Shown here: piece by piece, positions 6-14,365 of the stretch
Layout: the number at the start of each line of letters is the position of its first letter
How positions within the stretch are numbered: the first letter of the stretch is position 1
Origin: Edaphobacter aggregans
Lineage (GTDB): Bacteria > Acidobacteriota > Terriglobia > Terriglobales > Acidobacteriaceae
NCBI RefSeq assembly: GCF_003945235.1
Contig: NZ_RSDW01000001.1
Span: 3,930,001 to 3,962,000 of the forward strand
DNA: 32,000 nucleotides
Reading direction: 5' to 3'
Notes under the pieces: generated by a model
Told to the model about the DNA's origin: nothing
The model's input: only the letters and a program-made list of their open reading frames with translations
The model's database searches: none
Translations under genes and position numbers: made by a program

Positions 6-284
6 GTGAAACGGATTTTGATCAGAATAGTGGTAGGGCTGGCTTTGGCGTTGGCGGTGGTGTATCTGGGAGACCTGTTGGTCTGGCGGGTGCGAGTGGG
101 GATGGGCGGCGGCATGGGGAAGACGCAAGTGAGCCGGTTTGTGGTCGCTCCGCTGAAGGGAAATAAGGAGGAGTACTACTTCGACGGGACGACCATGGTG
201 GATTGCAGCCGGTCGCTGTTTCCGCAGGCGGGGAGTGGGGCTTGCTGGTGGCTGGAGCGGCATCATGTGGTTTATGAGCGGTGA
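6..284 (+). CDS. small membrane-anchored hypothetical protein (92 aa)
   Basis: GTG-start ORF with an N-terminal hydrophobic helix (IRIVVGLALALAVVYLGDLLVW). Its GC-rich third positions match the neighbouring genes. No family recognised. It lies at the window edge, so the true start could be upstream. Confidence 0.45.
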   Translation: MKRILIRIVVGLALALAVVYLGDLLVWRVRVGMGGGMGKTQVSRFVVAPLKGNKEEYYFDGTTMVDCSRSLFPQAGSGACWWLERHHVVYER

Positions 285-304
285 CGGGGTCGGAAAAGAG
301 CATA

Positions 305-440
305 CCCCAGGGGCTGAAGTCCCTTTCCTTTTGCGGGGTAGAGAGGCCCAAGGCTGAAGCCTTGGGGTACCTAGAGGCAAAGGCAACAGCAAAGGCAAGA
401 GCAGATCCCCTTCGGGGATGACAAACAAAAAGGCAACGGC
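305..440 (+). repeat. intergenic multi-hairpin repeat cluster, copy A (GCTGAAGC-loop hairpins plus GCAAAGGCAA-type direct repeats)
   Basis: Hairpin AGGGGC-TGAA-GTCCCT lies at 309-324. A perfect 8-bp hairpin CCCAAGGC-TGAA-GCCTTGGG lies at 347-366. Tandem gcaaaggcaa(c/g)agca repeats lie at about 377-403. Hairpin ATCCCC-ttc-GGGGAT lies at 405-419. The first two modules recur with similar spacing at 16412-16466. Confidence 0.6.
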
Positions 441-497: not shown

Positions 498-2417
498 CTA
501 GGTGGAGGCCTTTTGGGTTGGGAAGGGGGATGGGTGCGCGGTGGGGGTTGTGGACAGGACTCGCCAGAGGATGGCGCCTAGCAGGGGAAGGACGGCGACG
601 ATCACGAAGGCCGAAGGTCCGCCCTCTCCCAGGTTGAGAAGTCGGGTGATAGTTGGAGAGGTTATGGCGGTGATCAGAGCCCAGGCGAAGGTGCAGACTC
701 CAGCGAAGAAGGCGGTGTGTCGTCTGGGAAGCATGGCTATGCCGTCGGAGAGGGCCATGATGATGAATCCGGCGCCGAGGAACATCTGGCAGGCGAGGAG
801 GGGTACGGCCATGTCCAGTCTGTAACTTCTGAGAGCTGTCATCTGTAAGGGGACGAGAAGGAGTCCGGCGATCGAGAGGATGAAGAAGATGAGGCCGGGA
901 CGAGTGCCGCGTGGTTGGAGGTGGTCGGCTAATTTGCCGAAGAAGAGATAGCCGGCGATCAGGCCTGCTGATGTGAGCCAGAATATGAAGCTGCGGCTCT
1001 CGATGCGTATCGATGCGATTCGCGCGGAGTAGGAGAAGACGAAGGCAACGGGAATTGCTCCGAAGCTGTAGACAGCGACGTTAGCGAAGAAATTGCGCGC
1101 CCAGCGGGATTCTTCGGTGGCTTGGGGTGGGGATGAGCCGGACTGGGAGATGGTGGCTCGCAGCATGAGCCAGAAGATGATCCAGACGATGCTCAGCAGG
1201 GCTGCGAAGGTGCAGGCGAAACGCCAGGAGAAGCGTATGGCGATCGGTATGAAGATGGGAGCAGCGAACACGGTTGCAAGCGGACCTCCCGTATAGGCGA
1301 TGCCGAGGCCGACGGCGCGACGGGTGGCGGGAAGGGTGTCGACGACGGCCTTGACGGCAGCGGGGACGGTTGCGGCGATGCCGAGGCCAAGGATGCTGTG
1401 AGCGAGAATGAGTCTGGTAGGGCTTTGCGACAGTCCATGGCTCGCTAAGGCGAGCGACCAGATGACAATGGCGCTGAGTGTAGGGAGCCAGAGGCCAGCG
1501 CGATCCATCCATAGTCCCCAGAAGGGACTGGCGAGCATATAGAGGATGCTGAAGCCGAGGAGTGCGAGGCCTTGTTGTTCGGAGGTCAAATCGTCAACAA
1601 AAAATCCTGAATAGAGGAGGCTGAAGATGTTTCGGCCTGAGTAGCTGAGGAATGTCAGCAGAAGCATTGCGACGCAAGGCGCCCATTGTTGGAAGGCTGA
1701 GGTGGATGGAAGGGTGATCTCCTGCGGTGGGGGCGAGGGAGTTGTAACGGGGATGTTTGTTGGGGTGGGCTTGGCTTCGATATGGACGGGAGGTGCTTGA
1801 GGTGGGAGTGGGTCAGGGGTGATTTTGTAGTTGGGGGCGATGAACGATGGTGCGGGGGATTGCTCTGGTTTGTTTTTTTTGATGGCCTTCGGCTTGGGTT
1901 CGGGCTTGGGTTCGGGCTTTGGTTTGGTGGCTGGTTCTTCGTGGACTGGTTTGGGCGCTTCGGGTTGGCGATGTGGGGGCTCGATAATCGGTTGTGGAGG
2001 GGTTTGCTGACGAGGCAGCTCGACGTTCGGGTTGACGGCCAGGTTGCTGAGGAGGATGCGAAGGCCTCGGGCGTAGTCGGTCCGGAAGTCGACGTGTTGA
2101 TAGGGGCGGAGGCGAAAGGGGATTTTGCATTCGCGATAGAGGACAGGGATGACGGTCTTGTGCTCCTCGAGGGCGAAGGAGATTTCGTCGTCGACGTTGG
2201 TGGAGTCGACGGATGAAGGAGAGAGGATCACGAGTATGCGTGGAGAGGCGGTTAAGGCATCCTGCACGGAGCGGGCCCAGCGTTCGCCGGGTTTGATGTC
2301 GAGTTGATCCAGCCACACGGTAGCTCCGGCGGACTTCAGGTCTTCGGCGAGCCGAAGCGCGAAGTCGGAATCGTCACGGGAGTAACTGACGAAGGTTGCC
2401 TGTGGCTCTGCCGCCAA
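498..2417 (-). CDS. TIR domain / Pro-Lys-Glu-rich linker / 12-TM MFS-type transporter fusion protein (639 aa)
   Basis: TTG start at 2417 is preceded by AAGGAG (2425-2430) with a 7-nt spacer. The N-terminus has a TIR_2-like pattern (TFVSYSRDD...ILVILSPSSVDSTNVDDEISFA...VIPVLY). The linker contains KPKPEPKPEPKPK. The C-terminal half has 12 hydrophobic helices arranged 6+6, with MFS motif-A-like GLWMDRAG after TM2 and GKLADHLQPRG after TM8. Confidence 0.85.
   Translation of the reverse strand: MAAEPQATFVSYSRDDSDFALRLAEDLKSAGATVWLDQLDIKPGERWARSVQDALTASPRILVILSPSSVDSTNVDDEISFALEEHKTVIPVLYRECKIPFRLRPYQHVDFRTDYARGLRILLSNLAVNPNVELPRQQTPPQPIIEPPHRQPEAPKPVHEEPATKPKPEPKPEPKPKAIKKNKPEQSPAPSFIAPNYKITPDPLPPQAPPVHIEAKPTPTNIPVTTPSPPPQEITLPSTSAFQQWAPCVAMLLLTFLSYSGRNIFSLLYSGFFVDDLTSEQQGLALLGFSILYMLASPFWGLWMDRAGLWLPTLSAIVIWSLALASHGLSQSPTRLILAHSILGLGIAATVPAAVKAVVDTLPATRRAVGLGIAYTGGPLATVFAAPIFIPIAIRFSWRFACTFAALLSIVWIIFWLMLRATISQSGSSPPQATEESRWARNFFANVAVYSFGAIPVAFVFSYSARIASIRIESRSFIFWLTSAGLIAGYLFFGKLADHLQPRGTRPGLIFFILSIAGLLLVPLQMTALRSYRLDMAVPLLACQMFLGAGFIIMALSDGIAMLPRRHTAFFAGVCTFAWALITAITSPTITRLLNLGEGGPSAFVIVAVLPLLGAILWRVLSTTPTAHPSPFPTQKAST
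1891..1926 (-). repeat. 12-nt tandem repeat (about 3 copies) encoding the (PEPK)n linker
   Basis: ggcttgggttcg occurs at 1891-1902 and 1903-1914. A degenerate third copy, ggctttggtttg, lies at 1915-1926. On the minus strand these are in frame and encode KPEPKPEPKPK. Confidence 0.75.
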
Positions 2418-2615
2418 GGGTTGTCTCCTTATGCAGGAATTTCATAGTAGCTGATCCGGGTGGAATTCTCTTCCTATTGAGATTGATGTGGGAGCGGAAA
2501 TGTCCGACGTATGAATGGCTGCTCTTGAAGAATGTGGAGATTGAAACGGCTTAAGAGAACAACTTTTTGCGGGAAGCGGGTCATCAAAATTGTTGATGTC
2601 AGGAGTGATAGATCT

Positions 2616-3140
2616 ATGAAGAAACTTTTTGGACTGTTAGTTGTAGTGCTTCTTCTTTCTTTCCCAGCGTTAGCGCAGCATCCTGGCGGCGGCGGTCATC
2701 CGGGGGGCGGCGGGCATCCTGCTCCGGCGAATGGGCCTGCTGCGTATCACGGGGCGCCGCATGTTGAACCGAACCGTAACTTCAGCGATGCGCCGGGACA
2801 TCCGAATGTTCCTCATGTTCACCCGAACGGGGAGTGGATGGGACATGATGGCGGACCGAATGATGTGCACTATCATCTCGACCATCCGTGGGAGCATGGG
2901 CACTTTGTGGGTGGGTTTGGGCCTAGCCATGTTTGGCGTCTGTCTGGGGGCGGGCCGTCGCGATTCTGGTTTGGCGGATATTACTTTGGCGTGGCTCCGT
3001 ATGATCTGGCATACGTCAATGGCTGGAACTGGTACGGGGATGAGATTGTGATCTACGAGGATCCGGATCATCCGGGTTGGTATCTGGCCTATAACACTCG
3101 CCTGGGCACCTATGTGCACGTGCAGTATTTCGGAGCATAA
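2616..3140 (+). CDS. exported His/Gly-rich protein (174 aa precursor), possible periplasmic metal-binding protein
   Basis: I take the internal ATG at 2616, which has AGGAG at 2601-2605, as the start. The signal peptide is [21 protein letters not shown]. The mature part starts [14 protein letters not shown] and carries 17 His by hand count. The C-terminal part is aromatic-rich ([23 protein letters not shown]). Confidence 0.75.
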
Positions 3141-3155
3141 CGGCCGATTCTGGTT

Positions 3156-3200
3156 GGGCTTCCTCTTCGCGACGATACTGCTGTCGCGAAGAGGAAGCCC
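3156..3200. terminator. bidirectional intrinsic terminator hairpin between convergent genes
   Basis: Perfect 18-bp stem: GGGCTTCCTCTTCGCGAC (3156-3173) pairs with GTCGCGAAGAGGAAGCCC (3183-3200), with a 9-nt loop. It sits between the stop at 3140 (+) and the stop at 3242 (-). Confidence 0.8.
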
Positions 3201-3241
3201 CTGATGATTTTGCTGCGATGATGCGTTCGATGCGGCCGCTG

Positions 3242-4081
3242 TCAGCAGCCGGTGAAGGAGACGAATGCTCCGAGCTGCGACGGCAGGGTTGGGTTAAAGG
3301 GTTCGAATGGGTAGGTCTTTGATGTGTCGAAGCCTGCGGTTGTGGCCGCGTTGAAGTCGACAAAGGGCAGGAGCGCGTTGACGGCCTGATCGATTGAGGT
3401 CCAGCAGAGGGTTCTTTCGTAGCCGTTGTTGTTGGGCGGGTCTACGCTTTCGGCGACTCCGCTGATGCCGGTGATGGTTTCGATGGGGCCTCCGAATTTT
3501 TTGGTGACGTCGGGGCCGACGACACGGGCCAGGGTGCGGTGGTCGCTCTCGATGCCCATGATGCGGGCTGCCGTGACTCGCAGGTTGCGCGTGCTGAAGT
3601 TGCGCACGCCGACCAGATAGGCTGCGATGAAGGCGTCTTCGAGGGTGACCAGGATGTTGAGAGTGGTCTGTGCGTCGGCGAACATGTTGGGGGGATAGAA
3701 GAAGGAGGTGAAGGGTGTGGGCTGGTCGGTTACGGATTGCTCGAGGAGGTAGTGGGACATCTCTTCCTGCAAGGCGGCGGCCAGATATCCCTGGTCGTCC
3801 GATGGAATCTTTTTGAAGAAGGGCGCGGTGTTGATGATGTTGCTGTAGGTGGTGACGGCGAGGGCTTCGGCGATCTCGGCTGCGACGAGGATGTCGCGGT
3901 CGCCCTTCTTTAGATGGTCCTTCTCGGCCTTCATCGTGTCGGCTTCTTCTTCCTGCTGGGCCGAGGCTGTGGTGATTAGTCCTCCGAATGCGGTGAGGCT
4001 GGTGGCTCCGGCGAGCGTGGCGCTCTTGAGGAAGGATCGTCTGGAGAATGCTGCGTGGTTTTGCTCGTTTGGTGCGTACAT
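3242..4081 (-). CDS. Tat-exported ferritin-like domain protein
   Basis: Twin-arginine signal (FSRRSFLKSATLAGATSLTAF...ASA). The body is helical and ferritin-like (DILVAAEIAEALAVTTYSNII, LQEEMSHYLLE, LEDAFIAAYL). The preferred start is the ATG at 4081, with AGGAG (4091-4095) and a 9-nt spacer (4082-4090). The ORF track's longer start is at 4117. Confidence 0.8.
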   Translation of the reverse strand: MYAPNEQNHAAFSRRSFLKSATLAGATSLTAFGGLITTASAQQEEEADTMKAEKDHLKKGDRDILVAAEIAEALAVTTYSNIINTAPFFKKIPSDDQGYLAAALQEEMSHYLLEQSVTDQPTPFTSFFYPPNMFADAQTTLNILVTLEDAFIAAYLVGVRNFSTRNLRVTAARIMGIESDHRTLARVVGPDVTKKFGGPIETITGISGVAESVDPPNNNGYERTLCWTSIDQAVNALLPFVDFNAATTAGFDTSKTYPFEPFNPTLPSQLGAFVSFTGC

Positions 4082-4212
4082 ATTGCGTCTCTCCTGTGTG
4101 AATTTCAGGAAAGTCATCCGTTGTCGTAAGTGGAAGTGGCCCGTGGCTACTTTCCTGGCTGGATGAGGTACGAGTCGAGATTTGGGAGTGGATTGGGCGT
4201 AGCAGAAAAATT

Positions 4213-4261
4213 ACAAATGCAGACTGATCGCGCTTTTTACGGCGTGAAGGCCTGCATTTGT
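4213..4261 (-). terminator. probable terminator downstream of the SIS gene
   Basis: A 10-bp stem pairs ACAAATGCAG (4213-4222) with CTGCATTTGT (4252-4261). On the minus strand it is followed by AATTTTTCTGC. The 29-nt loop is unusually large. Confidence 0.5.
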
Positions 4262-4268
4262 TTGCGGG

Positions 4269-5396
4269 TTATTCCTGGACTACGGCTTTGACGAGGTTGC
4301 GGGGATTGTCTACGTCGATGTTTCGGCCTATGGCCATGAAGTAGGCGAGGAGTTGCAGGGGGACGACTTCGTAAAGGGGGGAGATGTACTCGGCGCACTG
4401 CGGGACGTGGATGGTGTGGCGGCTGAGTTTGGCGATTTCGGTGTCGCCTTCGCTGACGATGGAGATGATCTCGGCTCCCTGCTTGTTCATGTCGCGGACG
4501 AGGTTGACGGTTTTTTCGTAGCGGAGGATGGAGTCGGGTGCGTGGGGGTCGCGGGTAGCGAGGACGACGAGCGGGGTGTTGCGGTCGACGAGGGCGTTGG
4601 GGCCGTGCTTGAGCTCGCCGGTGGGGTAGCCTTCGGCTTGAATGTAGGCGGACTCTTTGAGCTTGAGGGCGCCTTCGCGAGCGATGGGGTAGTGGACGCC
4701 GCGGCCGAGGAAGAGGAAGGACTCGGCGGAGTGGAGGGAGTTGGAGAGCTCGGCGACCTGGGTCTCCCAGCGGGGGAGTGCGGCTTCCATGGCGGCGGGG
4801 ACGGCGTAGAGCTCATGAAGGTAGGACTCGACGACGGCGCGGGTCATGCGGCCACGGACCCGTGCGGCGTAGAGAGAGAGCAGCGAGATGACTACGAGCT
4901 GGGTGGTGAAGCTTTTGGTGGCGGGGACGGCTCGCTCGATGCCGGCGAGGGTGGGGAGAGAGCAGCCGGCGAGCTTCGCCATGGTGGAGTTGGGCTTGTT
5001 GGTGATGGCGATGGTGGAGCTGCCGCGTGCGGTGGCCTCGCGGAGGGCTTCGGAGGTGTCGGCGGTTTCGCCGGATTGGGAGATGACGAGGAAGCAAGGG
5101 TTCTTGAGGGTTTGGGTGGAGCGGTAGATGTACTCGCTGGCGTATTCGACGTCGACGGCGATGCCTGCAAGATCTTCGAAGAGGATTTCGCCGACCAGGC
5201 CGGCGTGGCGGCTGGAGCCGCTGGCGGAGATGAGGAGACTCTCGCGGCCTACGAGGGCTTGGCGGGCGGCGACGAAGGTTTCTTCGCGGAGGCTGTTGCC
5301 GTCGGCGTAGGCGGCGAGAGTCTCGGTGATGGCTTGCGGCTGCTCGAAGATCTCGCGGAGCATGGCGTGGGGGAAGATTTTGTCCTTGGGAAGCAT
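4269..5396 (-). CDS. double-SIS-domain sugar-phosphate isomerase/deaminase (isomerase half of GlmS; AgaS / NagB-II / FrlB-like)
   Basis: 375 aa with no glutaminase domain. SIS motifs are present (LLISASGSSRHAG, FLVISQSGETADT). The GlmS-like C-terminus reads DVDNPRNLVKAVVQE. Confidence 0.88.
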   Translation of the reverse strand: MLPKDKIFPHAMLREIFEQPQAITETLAAYADGNSLREETFVAARQALVGRESLLISASGSSRHAGLVGEILFEDLAGIAVDVEYASEYIYRSTQTLKNPCFLVISQSGETADTSEALREATARGSSTIAITNKPNSTMAKLAGCSLPTLAGIERAVPATKSFTTQLVVISLLSLYAARVRGRMTRAVVESYLHELYAVPAAMEAALPRWETQVAELSNSLHSAESFLFLGRGVHYPIAREGALKLKESAYIQAEGYPTGELKHGPNALVDRNTPLVVLATRDPHAPDSILRYEKTVNLVRDMNKQGAEIISIVSEGDTEIAKLSRHTIHVPQCAEYISPLYEVVPLQLLAYFMAIGRNIDVDNPRNLVKAVVQE

Positions 5397-5450
5397 TGCT
5401 TGGTTTTACCTCATGGATCAGTCTAGTGATAAGTTTGGACGCCAAAAAGA

Positions 5451-5476
5451 ATGGTGCGGGAAAAATCCCGCACCAT
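5451..5476 (-). terminator. intrinsic terminator between the PIG-L and SIS genes
   Basis: Perfect 10-bp stem ATGGTGCGGG / CCCGCACCAT with a 6-nt loop. On the minus strand it is followed by TCTTTTTGG. Confidence 0.75.
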
Positions 5477-5497
5477 GGCTAACACTTTGCGCTTTCG

Positions 5498-8335
5498 CTA
5501 GTGGTTCGAAGGGGTTGTGGTGAGGCCGGGATTTTTGCCCATGCTGAGGAGATTCGCCATGATGCGGTAGGAGCCGGGGACGCCGTCGGGCATCTGGCGG
5601 AAGAAGGCGTAGGCCAAGTAGACGTAAGCACCCTTGCCGTAGCGGGTGTAGAGGAGACCACCCTTCTGTGGGTCCTGGCCTGCGTCGTGCATCTCGGTGA
5701 GGGCGACGTAGTGTGGGTCCCAGGTACGCATGAAGCCGTGGCCGCGCTCTTCGACCCAGTTGTCGAAGTCGGCAGTGGTGATTTTGTTAGGCCAGTTGAA
5801 GACGGGATCTTTGGGATCAAGGAGACTGACCTTGTTGTCTTCTTCGATGACCTTCTCGGGGTCGCCGGAGAGGCTGAGTGGGTAGGGGCCGTAGTTGTGG
5901 TCGAACTCCTGGGTCTGGTACTGGACGATGACGGTGCCGCCGCCTTTTGCGTATTCGAGGAGACGATTGTTGAAGGTCTTCAGCTCGGGACGGGCAGCGT
6001 AGGCGCGGATGCCGAGGACGATGGCATCGTATTGGGAGAGGTCGCCGGTGGCGATGTCCTGTGCGGAGAGGAAGATTGGGTGGATGCCCATGTCTTCGAG
6101 CGACATGGCGACGTCATCGCCGGTACCCATGATGTAGCCGACCTTAAGGTTGGGTGCCGTTTTTACGTCGACACCGCTGGTGCGGTAGGTGGCAGGACGA
6201 TAGTGCGGATAGGGGCGGAGGCCAGCGTAGCCGACGGTCTCGAAGCCCTGAGTGTATTTTTCGCCGTTGTATTCGGCCACGGCGGTGATGGTATAGGGCT
6301 TGGGCTGGACGGACTCGGGTTGAACGCGGAAGACGAGGTTCTGATCTTCGCCCTCACGTGTGGTGGCGAAGTCGGCTACGGCGGGAGTGGACATCCATCC
6401 CTTGGGGAGATCGAGGTGGACCTGGCCTTTGGCCGGGCCTTTGACGCTGCTGTGGAGGGTAACGTGTAGCTCGAACGTGGTGCTCATGAGCGGAACGATG
6501 CCGGCCAGTGGGGAGACGGTGAGCGAGATGGCCGGCGCTACTAGGAGGGGTTCGAGGACGGGGCCATCGCCGTTCATGCGGTGGATGGTCTGGACGACTC
6601 CGGTGAGCTTGATATTGACGCCCTGATACGCGACTGTGGCCTCGGCCAGGAGAGGGTAGGGCCGATTGGGAAGGTTGAGGTACCGGAGATCGCTGATGTC
6701 GTAGTAGGACTGTTCGAGATTGGGACGGCTGAAGTAGGGCTTGGTCAGCTCAGCGTCTTTAGGGACGGTGATTGCGATCAATTGATCGCGGGAGTCGCTG
6801 GGGGCCATCGCTCCGGTGATGGAATCTTTGGGTGTCATGATCCAGCCGGGTCCGGCTTCGGATTTGACCTGAACATCGGTGAGTGAGACGGGCTCGCTAC
6901 CCTGGTTGGCGATGTGGACGGAGACGTTGAAGGTCTGGCCGGGGATGACGTTCTGCGAGGTTGGTGTTTGTATGGACATGTCACCGAAGGGGCCGGAGCG
7001 CTGAGGGCCCGCACCGTCGGCGGTGTTTGCAAGGAATGAGAGGCCGAGGGATTGCTTCAAGGCTTCGTTGAACTGGGCCTGCTTGATCTGGAGCTCATGC
7101 GCCATGTTGTAGCGAGATTCGGCGGGGAGGTTGCTCTTGTTTACTTCGTCGAGGAGGGCGTTGGTCTGGGCGAGGCCTTTGGCGAGGGTCGGTGCAATGG
7201 TGGAGGGGGTGGCGGCGTTGAAGTCCTTGATGGCGGACTCGACGGTCGCGTTGAGTGCGTTCAGTTTTTCGCGCCAGGGTGCTTGCTGAGCTTCAGGTGC
7301 ATAGGATGCGATGCCGGCCAGGGTGATGTCGATGCCGTCGAAGAAGCTGGATTCATGCGGGGAGGTCGAGATGCGCGCGGCGTAGAGGTGATATGGGCTG
7401 GAGGTGGAACGAGGGAGGGGGATGGCTATGCCACCGTTCTGAGACTTCTGCTCGTTGAGGCCCTCGCGGGAGATCTGCATGTAGGAGGAGCCGAGGAGAG
7501 GATTGTAGGTTCCGGTGGGGATCTCGACGTTGGTGGAGGGGACGCCTTCGATCCAGGTGTCGTCGGCGTAATTGCGGAAGCGGACGGGTTCCCAGTGGCC
7601 GGTGGCGTAGTCGTAGACGCCTTTGTCGGAGATGCGGGCGAAGGGGACGCGGCCGTAGACCTTGAGCGGTGTCCAGGGGAGGAGGCCAGCTTTGATCTGG
7701 TCAGGGAACATGTTGGGATCGCCGGCGGCCTTGTAGGCTTCTTGCGCCATGGCGCCAGAGACTTGATGGTGACCGTGGCCATCGGAGACGTTGCCGACGA
7801 AGGTCGAGGTGATGACGAGTGGGCGCTGCATGCGGATGACTCGGACGACGTCGTAGAGGACGCGATCTTTGCCCCAGGTCTTGAGGGCTTCTTCAATGGT
7901 CTTGGAGAAGCCAAAGTCAGCGACGCGAGTGAAGTACTGATGGACGCCGTAGTAATTGCCGGCGGCGAGCAGTTCCTGGGTGCGGAGGGTTCCGAGCTCG
8001 TCCCAGTAGTCGGAGGTCATGTCGTTTTGACCGCCTTCGCCGCGGTTGAGAGTGAGAAGGGTCGTATCGACGCCCTGGCCGCGGCCTTCATAGGTGAGCA
8101 TGCCGCCGTCTTCGTCGTCAGGGTGCGCGACGACCATGGCGAGGCTGGCGCGGGTGTGAAGCTTCTTAAGAGACTGGGAGAGAGCGGCGGAGCCTCGATC
8201 GATCGGGAGCGGACGAGCAAAAGCCGATTGATAGTGAGAGGATTCCGGCTGCTGGGCGACGACGTTCGTTCCGTTGAGGCAGAGAGAAGATATGAGAAGA
8301 CCCAGAGTGGTGCCGCGGAACAATTCAGATCTCAT
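5498..8335 (-). CDS. exported PIG-L/LmbE-family deacetylase with a large C-terminal extension (945 aa)
   Basis: Signal peptide (LGLLISSLCLNGTNVVAQQ). PIG-L motifs VVAHPDDEDGG and DGHGHHQ are present. The C-terminal region resembles a ThuA / class-I-amidotransferase fold (YDAIVLGIRAYA...GGGTVIVQYQ). AGGAG lies 9 nt upstream of the ATG at 8335. Confidence 0.88.
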   Translation of the reverse strand: MRSELFRGTTLGLLISSLCLNGTNVVAQQPESSHYQSAFARPLPIDRGSAALSQSLKKLHTRASLAMVVAHPDDEDGGMLTYEGRGQGVDTTLLTLNRGEGGQNDMTSDYWDELGTLRTQELLAAGNYYGVHQYFTRVADFGFSKTIEEALKTWGKDRVLYDVVRVIRMQRPLVITSTFVGNVSDGHGHHQVSGAMAQEAYKAAGDPNMFPDQIKAGLLPWTPLKVYGRVPFARISDKGVYDYATGHWEPVRFRNYADDTWIEGVPSTNVEIPTGTYNPLLGSSYMQISREGLNEQKSQNGGIAIPLPRSTSSPYHLYAARISTSPHESSFFDGIDITLAGIASYAPEAQQAPWREKLNALNATVESAIKDFNAATPSTIAPTLAKGLAQTNALLDEVNKSNLPAESRYNMAHELQIKQAQFNEALKQSLGLSFLANTADGAGPQRSGPFGDMSIQTPTSQNVIPGQTFNVSVHIANQGSEPVSLTDVQVKSEAGPGWIMTPKDSITGAMAPSDSRDQLIAITVPKDAELTKPYFSRPNLEQSYYDISDLRYLNLPNRPYPLLAEATVAYQGVNIKLTGVVQTIHRMNGDGPVLEPLLVAPAISLTVSPLAGIVPLMSTTFELHVTLHSSVKGPAKGQVHLDLPKGWMSTPAVADFATTREGEDQNLVFRVQPESVQPKPYTITAVAEYNGEKYTQGFETVGYAGLRPYPHYRPATYRTSGVDVKTAPNLKVGYIMGTGDDVAMSLEDMGIHPIFLSAQDIATGDLSQYDAIVLGIRAYAARPELKTFNNRLLEYAKGGGTVIVQYQTQEFDHNYGPYPLSLSGDPEKVIEEDNKVSLLDPKDPVFNWPNKITTADFDNWVEERGHGFMRTWDPHYVALTEMHDAGQDPQKGGLLYTRYGKGAYVYLAYAFFRQMPDGVPGSYRIMANLLSMGKNPGLTTTPSNH

Positions 8336-8404
8336 GGTGCGAAGCTCCTGAGGGATTACAGAGGTGTAAAAAGTCGACGATGGTAATGGATATCATGAGG
8401 TGAA

Positions 8405-8420
8405 AAACTTTGTAAAGTTT
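8405..8420. promoter_or_regulatory. perfect palindrome AAACTTTGTAAAGTTT in the divergent PIG-L / ROK control region (candidate operator)
   Basis: 7-bp arms AAACTTT and AAAGTTT with a 2-bp centre, in an AT-rich 95-bp divergent intergenic region. A related CTTTGTCAAAG lies at 9790-9800. Confidence 0.45.
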
Positions 8421-8451
8421 ATTTACATATTTGGGGTATCATCGTTGTCGA

Positions 8452-9705
8452 ATGAACACCGTCGAAAAAATGCGTCTGCCTCATCTCTCTACCGTACAGT
8501 ATCCCCCAGAAATGGAGACAGGGCCTTCGCGACCGGCGCATCTGCGTCAGGTGAATGCGCGGGGATTGCTGCGGTTGCTTCGTGAACACAATCCATGTTC
8601 GAAGGCGGACCTGGTGCGGTTGTCGGGGTTGAGCGCGCCAACTGTGTCGAGCGCTGTCGCGCATCTTGAATCGCTGGGGCTTATTGAGAATTTGGGGGAA
8701 GGAGAATCGAGCGGTGGGCGACCGCCCGGGTTGCTGCGTTTTCACGCGGAACATGGATATGTTGCCGGCGCGGATATTGGCGGGACGCGGCTGCGGATGA
8801 TACTTGCGGATTTGAACGGCAAGGTGCTGACGCAGTGGTCGACCCTACTGACCGAGAAGCAGCGGACCCCGAAGGCTGTGTGCTCTCTGATGCACGAGGG
8901 GCTGAAGGTGATGTGCCAGGAAGAGAGTACGTCGCTCAAGAAAGTACTGCATCTGACGGCGGGCGCACCGGGGATTACGAATGTTGATTCGGGAATTGTT
9001 CTTTCTGCGCCGAACCTTAAGGACTGGGATGACGTACCTCTGCGTACGATGATCGAAAAAGAGATGGGTATTCCGGCGCTGGTAGAGAATGACACGAACC
9101 TTGCTGCGGTGGGCGAGCACTGGCGTGGGTCGGCCACGGGAGTAGAGGATTTTATTTTTGTTGCGTTGGGAACAGGTGTGGGCGCGGGAATTTTTCTGCG
9201 CGGACGCTTGCATCATGGGGCGAACTGGAGCGCGGGGGAGATTGGCTACACGCGCGCGGAGGGATGTTCGCGACATCCGTTGCAGGTGCATTCGCCTGGG
9301 CAACTGGAGCGGTCGATTGGGGGAGTGGGCATCGAGAAGGAGTGGATGCGGCTGCTCGGACGGAGCCGCCGGGCGAATGAATCGGCTCTGACGAAGCTGC
9401 GGGCATCGGAGATATTCGACCTTGCTGTGGATGGCGACAGGGCCGCGGCTGAAGTTGTTCACTATGCTGCGCAGATTTTGGCTAACTGCATTGTTGACCT
9501 GGCGCTGGCGCTCGATCCAGAGGTAGTCATTCTAGGAGGCGGCGTGGGCGCTCACGCCGAGCTTTGTAGGGCCACGGAGAAATTACTGCAACAGAATGAA
9601 TTTGCCTGTCCACGCGTTCGGTCCAGCTCTCTCGGTACGCAGGCGCAACTCCACGGGGCAATTTCGCTTAGTCTCTCGGCCACGGAAAACAGGTTGCTGG
9701 CTTAG
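8452..9705 (+). CDS. ROK-family transcriptional regulator (NagC/Mlc-like; N-terminal wHTH plus ROK sugar-kinase fold)
   Basis: HTH region: NARGLLRLLREHNPCSKADLVRLSGLSAPTVSSAVAHLESLGLI. ROK core: ADIGGTRLR, ENDTNLAAVGE, LGTGVGAGI, SAGEIGY. The start is uncertain: TTG 8431, ATG 8452, 8470 or 8512, and none has a clear SD. Confidence 0.85.
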   Translation: MNTVEKMRLPHLSTVQYPPEMETGPSRPAHLRQVNARGLLRLLREHNPCSKADLVRLSGLSAPTVSSAVAHLESLGLIENLGEGESSGGRPPGLLRFHAEHGYVAGADIGGTRLRMILADLNGKVLTQWSTLLTEKQRTPKAVCSLMHEGLKVMCQEESTSLKKVLHLTAGAPGITNVDSGIVLSAPNLKDWDDVPLRTMIEKEMGIPALVENDTNLAAVGEHWRGSATGVEDFIFVALGTGVGAGIFLRGRLHHGANWSAGEIGYTRAEGCSRHPLQVHSPGQLERSIGGVGIEKEWMRLLGRSRRANESALTKLRASEIFDLAVDGDRAAAEVVHYAAQILANCIVDLALALDPEVVILGGGVGAHAELCRATEKLLQQNEFACPRVRSSSLGTQAQLHGAISLSLSATENRLLA

Positions 9706-9789
9706 ATTCAATAAAGAAATCATATTGACAAGCACAAGGTTGTTGCCCTAGTGTTAGGGCCACACTTCCTAAATAGATTTTACTAAGTT

Positions 9790-9800
9790 CTTTGTCAAAG
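9790..9800. promoter_or_regulatory. palindrome CTTTGTCAAAG upstream of the TonB receptor gene (possible second operator)
   Basis: 5-bp arms around a central T, located 53 nt upstream of the ATG at 9853. It shares CTTTGT..AAAG with the 8405-8420 palindrome. Confidence 0.3.
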
Positions 9801-9852
9801 CGATTTAAAGAAACGCTGATTTCGCTTCACCGTTGAAGTTTCAGGAGGCTAC

Positions 9853-12837
9853 ATGTCGATTCTTCGCATTGCCCAAACAGCTCTCTTCGGCGCCGCTCTT
9901 GCAGCGGGGCTTGTAGTTTCCAGCGCGAGTTTGCCCGCGTGGGCGCAGTCGCAGTCGATCAACGGCACGATTCGCGGACTGGTCTCGGACTCCACCGGGG
10001 CGCCGATTGCAGGGGCGACGGTGACAGTGAAGAATCTGGATACCGGATATACGCGTATCGTAACCTCTGCAGGGGATGGTCTTTACATCGCTCCCGATCT
10101 GCCGGTCGGAACATATTCGGTGAGTGCGCAGGCGGCTGGCTTTGCTCTGCTTACACAGACTGGTATCCACCTTGCTGCAGGAAACGAAACCGTTATCGAC
10201 CAGGTGCTCAAGGCGGGATCCGTGGCCACCGTGGTTGAGGTGACCTCCGATGCGCCGATTCTCGAACCAGCGCGGTTCACGCTGGGCCGCACGATTTCGC
10301 CGGAAGAGACGCAGAACCTTCCGCTGACGTCGCGCAATCCGTATAACTTCATCCTGTTTCAGCCGGGGGTGAGCGGCCATCCTAATCCGGAGAATGGGAT
10401 TCCGCGCACGGTGAATACGAACGGCCTGGTGGACCGCATCAGCTATCAACTGGACGGCATGGTGGATACGGAGACGGATCGTTATGGTCTGCGTTTGTTC
10501 GCTATTTCCGACTCGTATGTAAGCGAAGTGCAGACGATTGCCAATAGCGCTCCTGCAGAGTTTGGCAATACTGCTGGTGTTACGTTCAACGTGATTACAC
10601 CGACAGGGACCAATCACTATCACGGACTGGTGCAGTACATCTGGCGGCCAAAGGCGGCGAGCTCCTGCCCGATTCTGCAAAACTGCGTTGCAGGTACGAC
10701 TGGCTATGCTCCTAAGCCCGATTTGCATGTGGATGACTATGTGGGGCGCATCGGTGGACCGGTAAAGAGGGACAAACTATTTTTCTTCGCTGCCTACGAA
10801 AAGTTGAAGCGCGCCAATCCTCAGGCGATCACGATTACGCCAGCTAATCAAGCTACGTTGATCGGCTACGGGATCAATGCAGCTCTCTTCAATCCTGCGC
10901 CAAGCGTGCAGCGGGCGCAGTGGCTGGATGTACGTGGTGACTGGACCATCAACACGAAGAACCAGGCCTTTGTGCGGTACAACTATTTCCGCAATAACTA
11001 TCCGTTCAACACAAACGTCGGCGGTTTGTATGCTCAGGACGCGTCATCGGACTTTCAGGATCGGGCTCATATCATCGGAGCACAACTGATTACGACCTTC
11101 ACTCCGAACATTCTGAACGAGTTTCGCGGCTCGTGGCCCTACCGCAATGAACACCATGTTGCGGGCCCAATTACGGGACCTGGGCCAATGATCACGATCA
11201 CCGGAGTCGCCAACTTCGGCGGCACAAATGCAGCTGCTGACAAGTTCCAGGAGAAGATTCCGTCGTTCAACGACAACGTGACCTGGATCAAAGGTGCGCA
11301 CACGATGAAGTTCGGTGTCGGCCTTCAGAAGAACCTGGACACACAACTGCAAGATGTTTATGTGCAGTACACGTTTGCCTCCATTGCACAGTGGCAGAGT
11401 GCGAAGAACGGTACGACACCGCACGTTTACAGCAATGTGAAGGCGAGCATCGGACAACCTGGCGCGGCTTACCATTCGGTCTTCTTCAATCTGTTTGCGC
11501 AGGATACGTGGCAGGTGAAGAAGAACTTACTGCTCTCCTATGGCCTTCGCTATGACCAGTACCGCGCCCCTACACCCCCAGCGGGCGAGCCCTTTGTCTA
11601 CACGCAGGGTTTCCGCACTCCGCTTGGGAATTTTGCGCCGCGGTTCGGTGTTTCGTATCAGCCGAATCCGACGACAGTTGTTCGTTTGAATGCTGGGCTC
11701 TTCTATGAAGCGACACCGACAAACACGTGGTACAACCCGCTGTACAACAATGGCGCGGCGGGAAGTGGTTCTTTCATCGCGACCGTGACGGGTGCCTCGT
11801 CGGAGGCGGCTGCGACAAGCTGCCAGCCAGCCTTCCCGAACACTCCTCAACAGGTTCCGGCAAGCTGCCTTGGAACACAGAGCATCTACGCCCTGACTCC
11901 GAGGTTCAAGAACGAGTATGTATGGAACGTCAATGCACAGGTGCAGCAGCAGCTCACGAAGAGTGACTCGCTGACTCTTGGATACATCATGACCAATGGG
12001 CGCAATATGCAGTTCCTGCGGAATATGAACCTCATTAATCCGGTTGGCACTCTGCTTGACGGACGTCCTGTTTTTCAGACAGCAGTGAATGCGAACACGC
12101 GTCTGTTTCCGCAGTTCAACAACATTACGCTGATCGACGTTGGCTCGAACTCTTCGTACAACGCGCTGACAGCGACCTATGAGCATCGGATGTCGCTGGA
12201 TTGGACGATGAGCGCGTCTTACACGTGGTCGCACTCGATCACTAACACGCCGGAGGCCAATTCGTATGAGTTCTCGACGCCGGTGCAGGACACGACCAAT
12301 CCTAACGGGGACCGCGGCAATAGCGGTGTCAACCGTCCGCAATCGCTGACGGTGAGCACGGTGTATGCGCCGACGGCACACTTCGAGAATCGAATCGCGA
12401 ACGTGCTTGCCAACGACAATAATCTTGCGCTGCTAGGCAATTTCTCGAGCGGCGATCAACAGATCATGACTGTCAGTGCGGCGCTCAACAACGATGCGAT
12501 CGCCACGAGTCGGCCACTGTTCATTGGACGAAACACCTTGCGCGCCCCGAACATCGCTCAAGTAGATGCCCGCTACACACGTGGCTTTGGCACCTATTGG
12601 GAGCGCGTGAAGCCTCAGTTGCTGATCGAGGCCAACAACCTGTTCAACCGTTCCAACGTGACCTCGATCAATGGAACGGCGCAAGTGGTGCCTCTCAACT
12701 ACGTTGGGCCATCGAATGGCAATCCGGCCACCTTCAACCGGCTGGCGGGCACGATTACCTCCCAGCCGACGCTGGCGCCGACGAGTTCGGTTCTAGAGGC
12801 ACGAATTCTTCAGTTCGGTCTGAAGGTCGAGTTTTAG
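9853..12837 (+). CDS. TonB-dependent outer-membrane receptor with an N-terminal carboxypeptidase-regulatory-like domain (994 aa)
   Basis: AGGAGG lies at 9843-9848. Signal peptide ends ...LPAWAQS. CarbopepD_reg-like segment: GTIRGLVSDSTGAPIAGATVTVKNLDTGYTRIVTSAGDGLYIAPDLPVGTYSV. A long beta-barrel follows, ending LQFGLKVEF with a terminal aromatic residue. Confidence 0.92.
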   Translation: MSILRIAQTALFGAALAAGLVVSSASLPAWAQSQSINGTIRGLVSDSTGAPIAGATVTVKNLDTGYTRIVTSAGDGLYIAPDLPVGTYSVSAQAAGFALLTQTGIHLAAGNETVIDQVLKAGSVATVVEVTSDAPILEPARFTLGRTISPEETQNLPLTSRNPYNFILFQPGVSGHPNPENGIPRTVNTNGLVDRISYQLDGMVDTETDRYGLRLFAISDSYVSEVQTIANSAPAEFGNTAGVTFNVITPTGTNHYHGLVQYIWRPKAASSCPILQNCVAGTTGYAPKPDLHVDDYVGRIGGPVKRDKLFFFAAYEKLKRANPQAITITPANQATLIGYGINAALFNPAPSVQRAQWLDVRGDWTINTKNQAFVRYNYFRNNYPFNTNVGGLYAQDASSDFQDRAHIIGAQLITTFTPNILNEFRGSWPYRNEHHVAGPITGPGPMITITGVANFGGTNAAADKFQEKIPSFNDNVTWIKGAHTMKFGVGLQKNLDTQLQDVYVQYTFASIAQWQSAKNGTTPHVYSNVKASIGQPGAAYHSVFFNLFAQDTWQVKKNLLLSYGLRYDQYRAPTPPAGEPFVYTQGFRTPLGNFAPRFGVSYQPNPTTVVRLNAGLFYEATPTNTWYNPLYNNGAAGSGSFIATVTGASSEAAATSCQPAFPNTPQQVPASCLGTQSIYALTPRFKNEYVWNVNAQVQQQLTKSDSLTLGYIMTNGRNMQFLRNMNLINPVGTLLDGRPVFQTAVNANTRLFPQFNNITLIDVGSNSSYNALTATYEHRMSLDWTMSASYTWSHSITNTPEANSYEFSTPVQDTTNPNGDRGNSGVNRPQSLTVSTVYAPTAHFENRIANVLANDNNLALLGNFSSGDQQIMTVSAALNNDAIATSRPLFIGRNTLRAPNIAQVDARYTRGFGTYWERVKPQLLIEANNLFNRSNVTSINGTAQVVPLNYVGPSNGNPATFNRLAGTITSQPTLAPTSSVLEARILQFGLKVEF

Positions 12838-12856
12838 ACTCATACTGAAGGAAGGT

Positions 12857-14365
12857 ATGCCAAATTTACCGATTAAGGGCAAATCGGTGTTTCCAGCACC
12901 GATCTACCGCGACACCGTCTTAGTTCAGGTCTTTGCGGATGCCAAACGATATTTTCTAGAGCCGCTGCTGGAGATCGAGTATGCGCATACGCTGATGCTG
13001 GCGCGACAGGGCATCATGCCTGAAGCTGAAGCGGCCCTGTGCCTTCGCGCGCTGGACCAGCTTGATATCGATGAGGTTCGTTCGGCGCAGTACGACGGGA
13101 CATTTGAGGATCTGTTCTTCTACCTGGAGAAGAAGATTGCCGCAGTGTGCGGCGAAGAGGTTGCCGGCAAGATGCATACGGCTCGCAGCCGCAATGATAT
13201 TGATCTGACGATGTATCGCATGGTTCTGCGCGAGTGGTTGACACAGACACTGGTGGCGACGTTGCATCTTCGCCGCAGGCTTGTGGAGTTGGCATGGGAG
13301 CATCGTGCTTCGCTGATGCCGGCATATACGCATAATCAGCCTGCGCAACCGACTACGCTGGGCCACTACCTGATGGCGTATATCGAGATTCTGGAGCGCG
13401 ATGCTGAACGGATTCAAGCCGCTTATGCTCGGGTGAATCGCAATCCGCTGGGAGCCTGCGCGATTACGACGACCGGATTTCCTATAGATCGGCACTACAC
13501 AGAGAGGCTGCTGGGTTTTGCGGGACTGCAGGTCAATTCGTATGGGGCGATTGCAGCGGTGGATTATCTCGCCGAGAGCTGTTTCGTATTGGCTGGCACG
13601 ATGCTTAGCCTGGGGCGGTTTGCGCAGGATCTTCTGTTGTGGAGCACTGTAGAGTTCGGCTACTTGCGGCTTAGTGATGCTTATGTACAGATCAGTAGCA
13701 TCATGCCGCAGAAACGCAACCCGGTGCCTCTGGAGCATGTGCGGATTCTTGCCAGCCGCGCTTTGATGCAGGCACAGAGTGTTGTTGGATGTTTGCATAA
13801 CACTCCGTTTGCCGATATGAATGATGCCGAAGACGAGTTGCAGCCGCTGGTGTATACGGCATTTGAAGATGGCGAGCGAAGTCTTCGATTGCTAGCTGGG
13901 GTTTTGGATGAAGTGAAGTTCCATACTGAGCGCATGGCTGTGGCCGCAGATGAGAACTTTCTTCCGGTTACTGAGTTGGCCGATACGCTGGTGCGGTCGA
14001 CGGGCATCAGCTTCCATGCGGCGCATGCAGTTGTGAGCGCCGCAGTGAAGGAGCTTGAGGGCAACTATGACGCGGAGGCGATAGCGGAGATTATTGTGCG
14101 TGAGCTTCCGTCGATTGTTGAAGGGACTCGGATGATTTCTCGTGAGACGATCAGGACTTCGCTGAGTGCGCAGAACTTTGTTGCGGTTCGGCAGGTTGCG
14201 GGTGGACCGGCGAGTGAGGCGCTAGATCCGGAGATTCTGCGGGCCAGGGAGCAACTCCTGATTGATGAACGGTGGCTGTTTGATGAGGAGAATCATCGCA
14301 GGAATGCGCGAACGATGATGAGAGAAGAGAGCGATGCTCTGCTGCGGCGGGTCGATGGACGTTAG
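12857..14365 (+). CDS. argininosuccinate-lyase-like enzyme (aspartase/fumarase superfamily), divergent N-terminus
   Basis: All three superfamily motifs are present: HTARSRNDIDLT, YTHNQPAQPTTLGH and SSIMPQKRNPVPLE. The start is 19 nt after the receptor stop, with a GAAGGAAGG SD. The canonical ArgH N-terminal WGGRF motif is absent. Confidence 0.9.
   Translation: MPNLPIKGKSVFPAPIYRDTVLVQVFADAKRYFLEPLLEIEYAHTLMLARQGIMPEAEAALCLRALDQLDIDEVRSAQYDGTFEDLFFYLEKKIAAVCGEEVAGKMHTARSRNDIDLTMYRMVLREWLTQTLVATLHLRRRLVELAWEHRASLMPAYTHNQPAQPTTLGHYLMAYIEILERDAERIQAAYARVNRNPLGACAITTTGFPIDRHYTERLLGFAGLQVNSYGAIAAVDYLAESCFVLAGTMLSLGRFAQDLLLWSTVEFGYLRLSDAYVQISSIMPQKRNPVPLEHVRILASRALMQAQSVVGCLHNTPFADMNDAEDELQPLVYTAFEDGERSLRLLAGVLDEVKFHTERMAVAADENFLPVTELADTLVRSTGISFHAAHAVVSAAVKELEGNYDAEAIAEIIVRELPSIVEGTRMISRETIRTSLSAQNFVAVRQVAGGPASEALDPEILRAREQLLIDERWLFDEENHRRNARTMMREESDALLRRVDGR

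Follow-up and report, generated by a model that had tools for sequence, protein, structure and literature searches.

We have analysed a 32,000-nucleotide stretch of the genome of Edaphobacter aggregans (contig NZ_RSDW01000001.1, positions 3,930,001 to 3,962,000; hereafter the window), in which the gene at 498..2417 on the minus strand encodes a 639-residue protein (WP_125486189.1 / RSL17742.1) that is annotated only as "MFS transporter". The product is a bona fide member of both the TIR superfamily and the major facilitator superfamily (MFS), with an N-terminal TIR domain joined through a long disordered linker to a twelve-helix transporter domain. The fusion is genuine and vertically inherited, and its TIR part is a near-invariant cassette that recurs in a great many proteins whose C-terminal parts are unrelated. 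We tentatively favor, with a probability of roughly 0.4, an inner-membrane, transceptor-like receptor with a TIR output that is activated by clustering. The parts of the gene are as follows, where pLDDT is the predicted local distance difference test score of AlphaFold2 (AF2) models and dN/dS (ω) the ratio of nonsynonymous to synonymous substitution rates.

498..2417, minus strand: complete TIR-linker-MFS gene (Pfam matches; orthologues of the same architecture)
2425..2430, minus strand: Shine-Dalgarno sequence AAGGAG, 7 nt upstream of the TTG start codon at 2415-2417
2034..2417, minus strand: cytoplasmic TIR module, residues 1-128 (Pfam TIR_2, AF2, Foldseek, dN/dS 0-0.13)
2184..2186, minus strand: codon of E78, equivalent to the catalytic Glu position of NADase TIRs
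1698..2033, minus strand: Pro/Lys/Glu-rich disordered tether, residues 129-240 (AF2 pLDDT 31-40; dN/dS 0.31-0.45)
543..1697, minus strand: MFS domain with 12 transmembrane helices, residues 241-625, DgoT/SLC17-like (Pfam MFS_1; DgoT best PDB match; dN/dS 0.37-1.4)
1632..1637, minus strand: codons of G261-R262 in transmembrane helix 1 (DgoT D46-R47), Asp lost and Arg kept in the alignments
1494..1517, minus strand: MFS motif A GLWMDRAG, residues 301-308, retained, with D305 and R306 invariant
1377..1400, minus strand: transmembrane helix 4 segment H340...I347 (DgoT R126...E133), both charged residues replaced in the HMMER alignment to 6e9n/6e9o

The initial annotation, made from the letters of the window and giving no strand for the gene, had read a TIR_2-type pattern in the N-terminal region, and a hidden Markov model (HMM) check bears this out, with Pfam TIR_2 (PF13676) matching residues 9-122 at E=4.3e-28 (98.7 bits against a cutoff of 28). 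The AF2 model of residues 1-130 (pLDDT 86) has a predicted flavodoxin-like TIR fold, for which Foldseek ranks the Hydra TRR-2 receptor TIR first (TM-score 0.80-0.85) and also returns SPARTA TIR-APAZ proteins (0.84-0.87), SARM1, the MyD88/MAL filaments and AbTir (0.78), the matches to solved TIRs having a probability of 1.00. The Glu of the NVDDEISFA segment had been proposed to occupy the catalytic position, and in both single-sequence and profile alignments this residue, E78, coincides with the Glu of the W-x-x-x-E motif in BtTir (WTEYE), PdTIR (WPQKE) and Cat1 (WCWDE); it also stands in ungapped register with chain residue 78 of AbTir, which we take to be E208. E78 is invariant in 112/112 relatives, and D77, F9, S11, Y12, R14, W35, D37, Q38, D40, G44, K87, P91 and C97 vary hardly or not at all across the family. 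The domain has the betaA 'FxSY-R' and BB-loop 'WxD...PG' motifs and the NAD-pocket-like sequences FxSYSR and WLDQLDIxPG, and a betaD/DD-loop motif, 'IPVLYRxCxxPF.L', is common to the TIR cassette and the Hydra TRR-2 receptor TIR. Judged from these alignments, NAD+-cleaving catalysis by the TIR domain is plausible. Comparison with the PADLOC defence models gave sub-threshold matches only, to SPARTA, SAVED and ThsB TIRs, with the SPARTA and SAVED TIR effectors nearest; Pfam ThsB_TIR scored 17.4 bits against a cutoff of 21.2, the PADLOC ThsB models gave E=6e-5 or weaker, and the Aga_TIR matches span only the TIR part (residues 7-128).

The C-terminal portion had been taken for a complete 12-helix MFS bundle of 6+6 arrangement, and it is one. 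Pfam MFS_1 matches residues 251-585 (E=1.5e-23; 83.8 bits against a cutoff of 33.4), the full-length AF2 model shows twelve transmembrane helices in two sets of six at pLDDT 85-93, and Foldseek places E. coli DgoT (TM-score 0.74-0.75, target-normalised) and sialin on top, with NorA also returned. DgoT (6e9n/6e9o) is the best PDB match by sequence as well as by fold, at an identity of about 23%, and NCBIfam gives sub-threshold matches to MFS subfamilies of the ACS type, TIGR00893 reaching 57 bits against a cutoff of 395. The two motif-A-like sequences that had been pointed out, GLWMDRAG and GKLADHLQPRG, are present and conserved.

Comparison of the transporter domain with DgoT suggests a loss of proton coupling. 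The closest TIR-less relatives (P0005-P0012; 38-43% identity) keep 'YVDR' in transmembrane helix 1 and 'GFGEGATFPAG' in helix 4, which HMMER places on D46-R47 and on E133 of DgoT, the E133Q mutant entry 6E9O fixing the column. The R126 equivalent and motif A are likewise retained in these paralogues. The TIR-MFS protein has YSGR and GLGIAATVPA at these places, such that D46 of DgoT corresponds to G261, E133 to I347 and R126 to H340; across the five fused sequences the D46 column reads G/S/A/G/A and the E133 column I/L, and R262, the equivalent of DgoT R47, is invariant in all 15 of the 15 aligned sequences. In DgoT, D46 and E133 are each needed for net H+-coupled flux, galactonate binding and partial conformational transitions remain in the D46N and E133Q mutants, and R47, in contact with the carboxylate of the substrate, sets off the closing of the outer gate (PMC10149257, PMC11649914). 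The fused MFS domain thus descends from DgoT/SLC17-type anion:H+ symporters with loss of both proton-translocating carboxylates and of R126, and it is a derived, probably uncoupled DgoT-like domain; given the homology to DgoT, it should therefore bind an anionic ligand and change conformation without proton-driven uptake. A protein search with the MFS part alone returned only fused orthologues and no TIR-less relative already devoid of the Asp/Glu pair, although this absence of intermediates is weak evidence because the word-index search has low sensitivity with hydrophobic queries and missed P0003 and P0005-12.

Between the two domains lies the Pro/Lys/Glu-rich linker that had been estimated at about 100 residues; it spans residues 129-240, about 110 residues, and is predicted to be disordered, with pLDDT of 31-40 in the full-length AF2 model. 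It is 35% identical to the linker of the orthologue that is 50% identical overall, and the same model shows no confident interface between the TIR and MFS domains. A disordered tether of this length disfavors direct conformational gating of the TIR domain by the transporter and makes clustering or proximity the more plausible means of communication.

That the fusion is authentic is established by its orthologues. Full-length proteins of the same architecture are found at 93% (P0001), 70% (P0002) and 50% (P0003) identity on three independent metagenome contigs from different projects, and the window itself is from an isolate genome; a frameshift or misassembly that joins two genes, which the initial annotation had named as something that might undo its reading, is ruled out by this set and is not borne out, since the orthologues share the uninterrupted fusion. 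The orthologous loci also share a gene order, comprising genes for a PIG-L deacetylase, a SIS protein, a ferritin-like protein, a 174-residue secreted protein, the TIR-MFS protein and a 92-residue membrane protein. The only close relative that apparently has no TIR domain, P0004, carries the linker and MFS domain in an open reading frame (ORF) that begins 31 nt from the contig edge, and it is therefore truncated and its TIR content not assessable. The TTG start, considered well supported from the outset by its AAGGAG sequence, is used in four of four TIR-MFS sequences (the window, L001, L002 and L003), and its conservation may reflect low translation initiation. We note also that the apparent start is TTG or GTG in 57/112 members of the wider family of TIR domains joined to other C-termini (TIR-X).

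The two halves of the gene evolve at very different rates. Nei-Gojobori dN/dS values were calculated for the window against its orthologues and calibrated on syntenic genes of the same genome pairs, and they are 0-0.13 for the TIR domain, 0.31-0.45 for the linker and 0.37-0.45 for the MFS domain, rising to about 1.4 for the latter in the closest pair. In the comparison with L002, the SIS, ferritin-like, PIG-L, 174-residue and 92-residue protein genes are 88-95% identical (dN 0.03-0.07, ω 0.08-0.13) and the TIR domain behaves like these neighbours (90% identity, dN 0.06), whereas the MFS domain is 46% identical with a dN of 0.45, or 7-13 times that of the syntenic genes; overall, linker and MFS domain evolve about ten times faster than the TIR domain and all syntenic neighbours. 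For the closest pair, with L001, the neighbours plus TIR domain have 3 nonsynonymous to 18 synonymous differences and the MFS domain about 24 to 6 (Fisher p=4e-6). Within the MFS domain the invariant fraction is 0% in the periplasmic loops, and among helix halves it is 26% on the periplasmic side versus 48% on the cytoplasmic side (p=5e-5), an asymmetry that is in part generic to MFS proteins. Other orthologous pairs of the wider family behave similarly, with ω of 0.03-0.2 for the TIR domain versus 0.2-0.6 for the C-terminal part. In several pairs the dS values of the two halves disagree strongly: in L059 and L063 the TIR domains are 99% identical with a dS of 0.14 and the C-termini 43% identical with a dS of 1.2, and L004 and L011 show the reverse; this discordance of dS between gene halves in both directions therefore points to recombination or gene conversion at the module boundary between TIR domain and linker.

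The initial annotation suggested a survey of how widespread the fusion is, and the fusion proves to be real and recurrent; it is, however, no lone oddity but one polytopic member of a very large cassette family. Over its first 128 residues the protein shares 58-78% identity with the N-termini of very many proteins whose C-terminal parts are unrelated and include Sel1 repeats, BNR/Ycf48-like propellers, DUF1566, TonB_C, PASTA, TPR, WD40, cyclophilin and other domains. An exhaustive HMMER search of the full-length protein against 1.84 billion cluster representatives returned 1,270 clusters (50% identity) at E<=1e-30, mostly through the TIR domain alone among the matches listed, and two short exact motifs locate 570 cassette loci in species-representative genomes, several of which have more than one copy. 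These 570 loci are overwhelmingly from Acidobacteriota (Acidobacteriaceae, Korobacteraceae, Silvibacterium, Terracidiphilus, Bryobacterales, Blastocatellia and Thermoanaerobaculia). The usual layout is a TIR domain, a linker of 45-180 residues, a single transmembrane helix and a C-terminal domain; Lys and Arg are in excess before the helix in 74 proteins versus the reverse in 19, and this positive-inside bias therefore places the TIR domain in the cytoplasm, where the initial annotation had put that of the fusion from its N-terminal position, and the variable domain in the periplasm. Because the TIR cassette is shared, any explanation of the TIR-MFS protein must also cover these single-pass members with a TIR domain, a transmembrane helix and a periplasmic domain.

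Pfam assignments for 77 genome-derived members include PSII_BNR (14), Sel1 (9), WD40 (4) and MFS (2), and a few cassette-bearing relatives have STAND/AAA_35 or WD40 modules. Fusion of the cassette to an MFS domain has at least three separate origins, represented by the orthologue group of WP_125486189.1, by P0032, L013 and L014 (which belong to another MFS subfamily), and by P0054. Family members are mis-annotated or under-annotated, with present names such as "MFS transporter", "TPR repeat protein" and "photosystem II stability/assembly factor-like". All-versus-all clustering of the flanking ORFs at 80 family loci gave no conserved partner gene within 3 kb; the largest cluster is an antisense ORF of the TIR gene itself, and clusters of up to 13 loci reflect local synteny (S41 peptidase, FabF). 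Neither a TIR-MFS fusion nor a family of tethered TIR-transmembrane proteins was found described in the literature searched, whose coverage leaves out most subscription journals, in keeping with the earlier view that the architecture is not a described one; conflict-system papers of the Aravind group contain transmembrane-Sel1/PASTA modules only within iSTAND systems.

Several further arrangements of the cassette are seen. In some loci a short TIR-only gene (about 200 residues) lies directly beside a long gene of the TIR-transmembrane type, or two TIR-X genes stand in tandem (L016, at 2227-2835 and 2971-4680; also L035, L046, L051 and L011), pairs that are reminiscent, by analogy, of receptors and adaptors. 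TIR fragments of 77-79 residues are present in L019 and L022. There are also giant proteins of 1,400-2,200 residues (P0128, P0132, P0133, P0134 and P0158) with five to seven tandem TIR domains, spaced about 200 residues apart and 30-40% identical to that of the TIR-MFS protein. The cassette occurs at 60-65% identity in metagenome-assembled genomes attributed to other phyla (L058, Verrucomicrobiia; L071, Flavobacteriaceae; L080, Parafilimonas), through either horizontal transfer or binning contamination.

The receptor reading that we favor can be set out as follows. The MFS half would no longer perform H+-coupled uptake and would act as a periplasm-facing module that senses a ligand, probably an organic anion, or a perturbation. 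Sensing would alter the extent to which the tethered TIR domain is locally concentrated or clustered, which is the most likely route of signalling because the tether cannot transmit a conformational change. The TIR domain would in turn self-associate or join the cassettes of paralogues, among them the TIR-only proteins whose genes adjoin those of some family members, and the assembly would either form an active NAD+-cleaving or signal-generating enzyme through E78 or nucleate a signalling scaffold. The family as a whole would be a TIR-output counterpart of the membrane Ser/Thr-kinase or anti-sigma receptor repertoires, each member resembling a topologically inverted Toll-like receptor. A conserved output (TIR ω 0-0.13) combined with a diversifying sensor (MFS ω 0.37-1.4) is an evolutionary signature that argues for this reading. 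The initial annotation had also raised the idea of a transceptor, which gains independent support because the MFS domain has lost the D46/E133 pair yet keeps the ligand-contacting Arg, although its literal form, in which transporter conformation gates the TIR domain, does not fit a disordered tether of some 110 residues.

A number of observations weigh against this reading. The Trp position of the W-x-x-x-E motif is Asn74 here, and is Asn in 89% of the family; the best sequence match of the TIR domain is the Hydra receptor TIR TRR-2 (E=5e-13), which does not have the Glu; and in characterised TIRs the catalytic Glu is needed for NAD+ cleavage and yet is not sufficient. In the closest pair the MFS rate is indistinguishable from neutrality (binomial p=0.67), and the domain might therefore serve as hardly more than an anchor in the membrane. 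A membrane-embedded Asp, D559 ('ALSDG'), is conserved and could be an alternative protonation site, and the separate fusion P0032 keeps both acidic residues, such that the loss of coupling does not extend to all TIR-MFS proteins. Flanking-ORF clustering, PADLOC and Rfam scans identified no ligand, downstream receptor or partner gene, and to our knowledge MFS proteins do not cluster upon ligand binding.

The alternative that survives best, though we consider it somewhat unlikely, is that the TIR domain is a non-enzymatic homo- or heterotypic assembly domain that gathers envelope proteins (MFS, Sel1, BNR, PASTA, TonB_C) on a common membrane platform; in this case the MFS domain would still move substrate by uniport or exchange, and the TIR domain would set only its location and partners. 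Conservation extends over the whole TIR domain, the betaD/DD-loop motif included, and not the pocket alone, and both the best sequence match (E=5e-13) and the top structural match are to a scaffold-type receptor TIR, with the MyD88/MAL filaments matched too. The 58-78% identity of the cassette across paralogues with unrelated C-termini is as expected if the copies stay mutually compatible, short TIR-only genes adjoin genes of the TIR-transmembrane type, and the D46N/E133Q double mutant of DgoT is still competent for exchange. However, the invariance of E78 and D77 and the NAD-pocket-like motifs fit an enzyme at least as well, and a housekeeping platform leaves the fast evolution and recombination of the C-terminal modules unexplained.

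It is distinctly less probable that the protein is a stand-alone abortive-infection sensor against phages or toxins, in which the degenerate MFS domain is a guard or decoy of a route by which phages or contact-dependent toxins enter through the inner membrane and perturbation of the domain leads to TIR-mediated NAD+ depletion. A conserved TIR domain joined to a fast-evolving, recombining sensor is a classic immune-receptor signature, the variation is concentrated on the periplasm-facing side, the nearest HMMs in the defence library are those of SPARTA and SAVED TIR effectors, and a few relatives have the STAND/AAA_35 or WD40 modules typical of conflict systems. Against this, there is no defence island; every orthologue stands in the same housekeeping synteny (PIG-L/SIS/ferritin-like) and is vertically inherited, the gene is monocistronic, and the 80 family loci have no partner gene within 3 kb. 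No flanking gene matches a Pfam or PADLOC defence model, as the initial annotation had noted of the adjacent genes, and neither database gives a defence gene in the 32-kb window; the sole PADLOC match among the eight unannotated or nearby window proteins scanned is to a generic HEAT-repeat model, in a gene about 19 kb away. There are no confirmed matches to the cassette among 2.9 million viral contigs, and its 58-78% identity across classes of the phylum is unlike that of fast-diverging defence TIRs. The proposal of a membrane-integrity sensor with an abortive-infection-like output, also made at the outset, is therefore unsupported.

Information might also flow in the opposite direction, with the TIR domain a cytoplasmic NAD(H)- or nucleotide-binding regulator that tunes a functional facilitator or exchanger to the metabolic state, and this we regard as improbable. 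Regulatory domains at the N- or C-terminus are common on transporters, the pocket residues of the TIR domain are conserved, and the MFS domain keeps motif A, R262 and its 12 helices; but the same cassette is joined to many periplasmic domains that are not transporters and so offer nothing to gate, the 110-residue disordered tether and the want of a confident TIR-MFS interface make allosteric control unlikely, and key coupling residues are lost. We give almost no weight to an artefact, either two joined genes or a decaying MFS pseudogene as the dN/dS of about 1.4 in the closest pair might suggest, since the ORF and architecture are uninterrupted in an isolate and three metagenome contigs (93%, 70% and 50% identity), the MFS ω falls to 0.37-0.45, below 1, at greater divergence, and twelve transmembrane helices, motif A and R262 are all conserved.

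The receptor reading might be extended to the phylum as a whole, although we regard this wider form as doubtful: Acidobacteriota would carry a Toll-like receptor-style repertoire of hundreds to thousands of inner-membrane proteins that share one near-invariant, flexibly tethered cytoplasmic TIR cassette, with fast-evolving and recombining periplasm-facing sensors, induced TIR assembly and NAD+-derived chemistry, possibly signalling through TIR-only adaptor paralogues. The TIR-MFS protein would be an instance in which an uncoupled transporter was recruited as sensor, for an organic anion or as the guard of an inner-membrane entry route.

Comparison with known systems places the protein between several of them. 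It resembles the enzymatic TIRs (SARM1, AbTir/BtTir, SPARTA TIR-APAZ, Thoeris ThsB and Cat1) in fold (TM-score 0.78-0.87), in the Glu at the catalytic position and in the betaA and BB-loop motifs, and by analogy activation through oligomerisation might be expected; it differs in being tethered to the membrane by a disordered linker, in having Asn for Trp, in being far more conserved than defence TIRs, and in having no APAZ/pAgo, ThsA, SAVED, CARF or ARM/SAM partner or domain. With regard to Thoeris (ThsB plus ThsA), the ThsB HMM is below threshold and there is no adjacent ThsA (SIR2/Macro-SLOG) gene; unlike SPARTA TIR-APAZ, the C-terminus is an MFS domain and the window has no Ago gene; and unlike the TIR effectors of CBASS, Pycsar and type III CRISPR systems, there is no SAVED, CARF or STING domain and no cyclase in an operon, the gene being monocistronic.

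The Toll-like and Toll-related receptors (Hydra TRR-2, PDB 4W8G/4W8H; TLR1/2/6; MyD88) provide the best sequence match, the top fold and the shared betaD/DD-loop motif, and likewise combine a conserved cytosolic TIR domain with a variable extracytoplasmic sensor in multi-paralogue transmembrane families. The TIR-MFS protein is nonetheless inverted relative to these (N-terminal TIR, type II), is bacterial and has no death-domain adaptor, Hydra TRR-2 does not have the Glu, and the sensor is a polytopic MFS domain (Sel1, BNR or DUF1566 in relatives) rather than leucine-rich repeats. DgoT and the SLC17/ACS anion:H+ symporters (6E9N/6E9O) are the closest solved relatives, sharing the 12-helix MFS fold, motif A and the R47 equivalent, whereas the TIR-MFS protein has G, I and H for D46, E133 and R126, lies far below the TIGR00893 cutoff, has an N-terminal TIR domain and tether, and evolves about ten times faster than its neighbours. 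Transporter-like sensors are exemplified by yeast Snf3/Rgt2, E. coli UhpC and SLC5-histidine kinase fusions such as CbrA/CrbS, and in Snf3/Rgt2 a long cytoplasmic tail does the signalling and transport has been lost. With such transceptors the protein shares a transporter fold that would serve as sensor coupled to a cytoplasmic signalling module, as well as an apparent loss of transport-coupling residues; it departs from them in that the signalling module is a covalently fused, N-terminal, bacterial TIR domain. A link between a transporter-type protein and TIR signalling has precedent in mammalian RhBG, which signals through the TIR domain of MyD88 (PMC11294993).

Bacterial TIR domains have so far been seen almost wholly as soluble NADase or signal-generating parts of anti-phage operons, or in the role of secreted virulence factors. 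The locus described here points to another role, filled by a large number of proteins, in which a highly conserved cassette on the cytoplasmic face of the inner membrane has been recombined with many periplasmic or polytopic modules; this family context is of greater interest than the single gene. If the cassette signals, it would be the first bacterial family with Toll-like receptor logic, and the TIR-MFS protein would amount to a natural experiment on the conversion of a proton symporter to a sensor; the repertoire reading, if true, would mean bacterial transmembrane pattern recognition with a TIR output that does not depend on the operon-encoded defence systems known so far. As a scaffold alone, the cassette would nevertheless stand for a new way of organising membranes in a phylum that is dominant in soil. 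Because E. aggregans is a cultured isolate, the predictions are directly testable.

The genes and signals around the TIR-MFS gene in the window are these.

6-284, plus strand: gene for a 92-residue protein with an N-terminal transmembrane helix, convergent with the TIR-MFS gene
304..325, readable on both strands: terminator-like hairpin between the convergent 92-residue protein and TIR-MFS genes (consensus scan only)
2616-3140, plus strand: gene for a 174-residue secreted His/Gly/Pro-rich protein, divergent from the TIR-MFS gene (the ORF start at 2532 is over-extended)
3242-15788: clustered genes for ferritin-like, SIS-domain, 945-residue PIG-L-family deacetylase and ROK-family regulator proteins, a CarboxypepD_reg TonB-dependent receptor, an argininosuccinate-lyase-like protein and an amino-acid permease

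In every locus examined the TIR-MFS gene has a gene of the opposite strand on either side, from which it follows that the gene is monocistronic. A promoter scan of the gene gave no signal above shuffle level, and an Rfam scan of its 5' region gave chance-level matches only and no riboswitch or RNA motif. The 174-residue protein has no Pfam or PADLOC match and is kept at the same position in all orthologous loci (88-99% identity), and the 92-residue membrane protein, which matched no known family, adjoins the TIR-MFS gene in L001, L002 and L003 and also in L086. The cluster at 3242-15788 looks like an amino-sugar or glycan utilisation locus, and in relatives synteny with the TIR-MFS gene extends over its proximal part. 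Finally, the TIR-less MFS paralogues with the DgoT D46/E133 pair intact (L084, L085, gene 6001-7200) share the conserved gene order zwf - 6-phosphogluconolactonase - glucokinase - M1 aminopeptidase - MFS, a context that is uninformative for the fused protein and that hints that the ancestral transporter took a substrate related to sugar acids.

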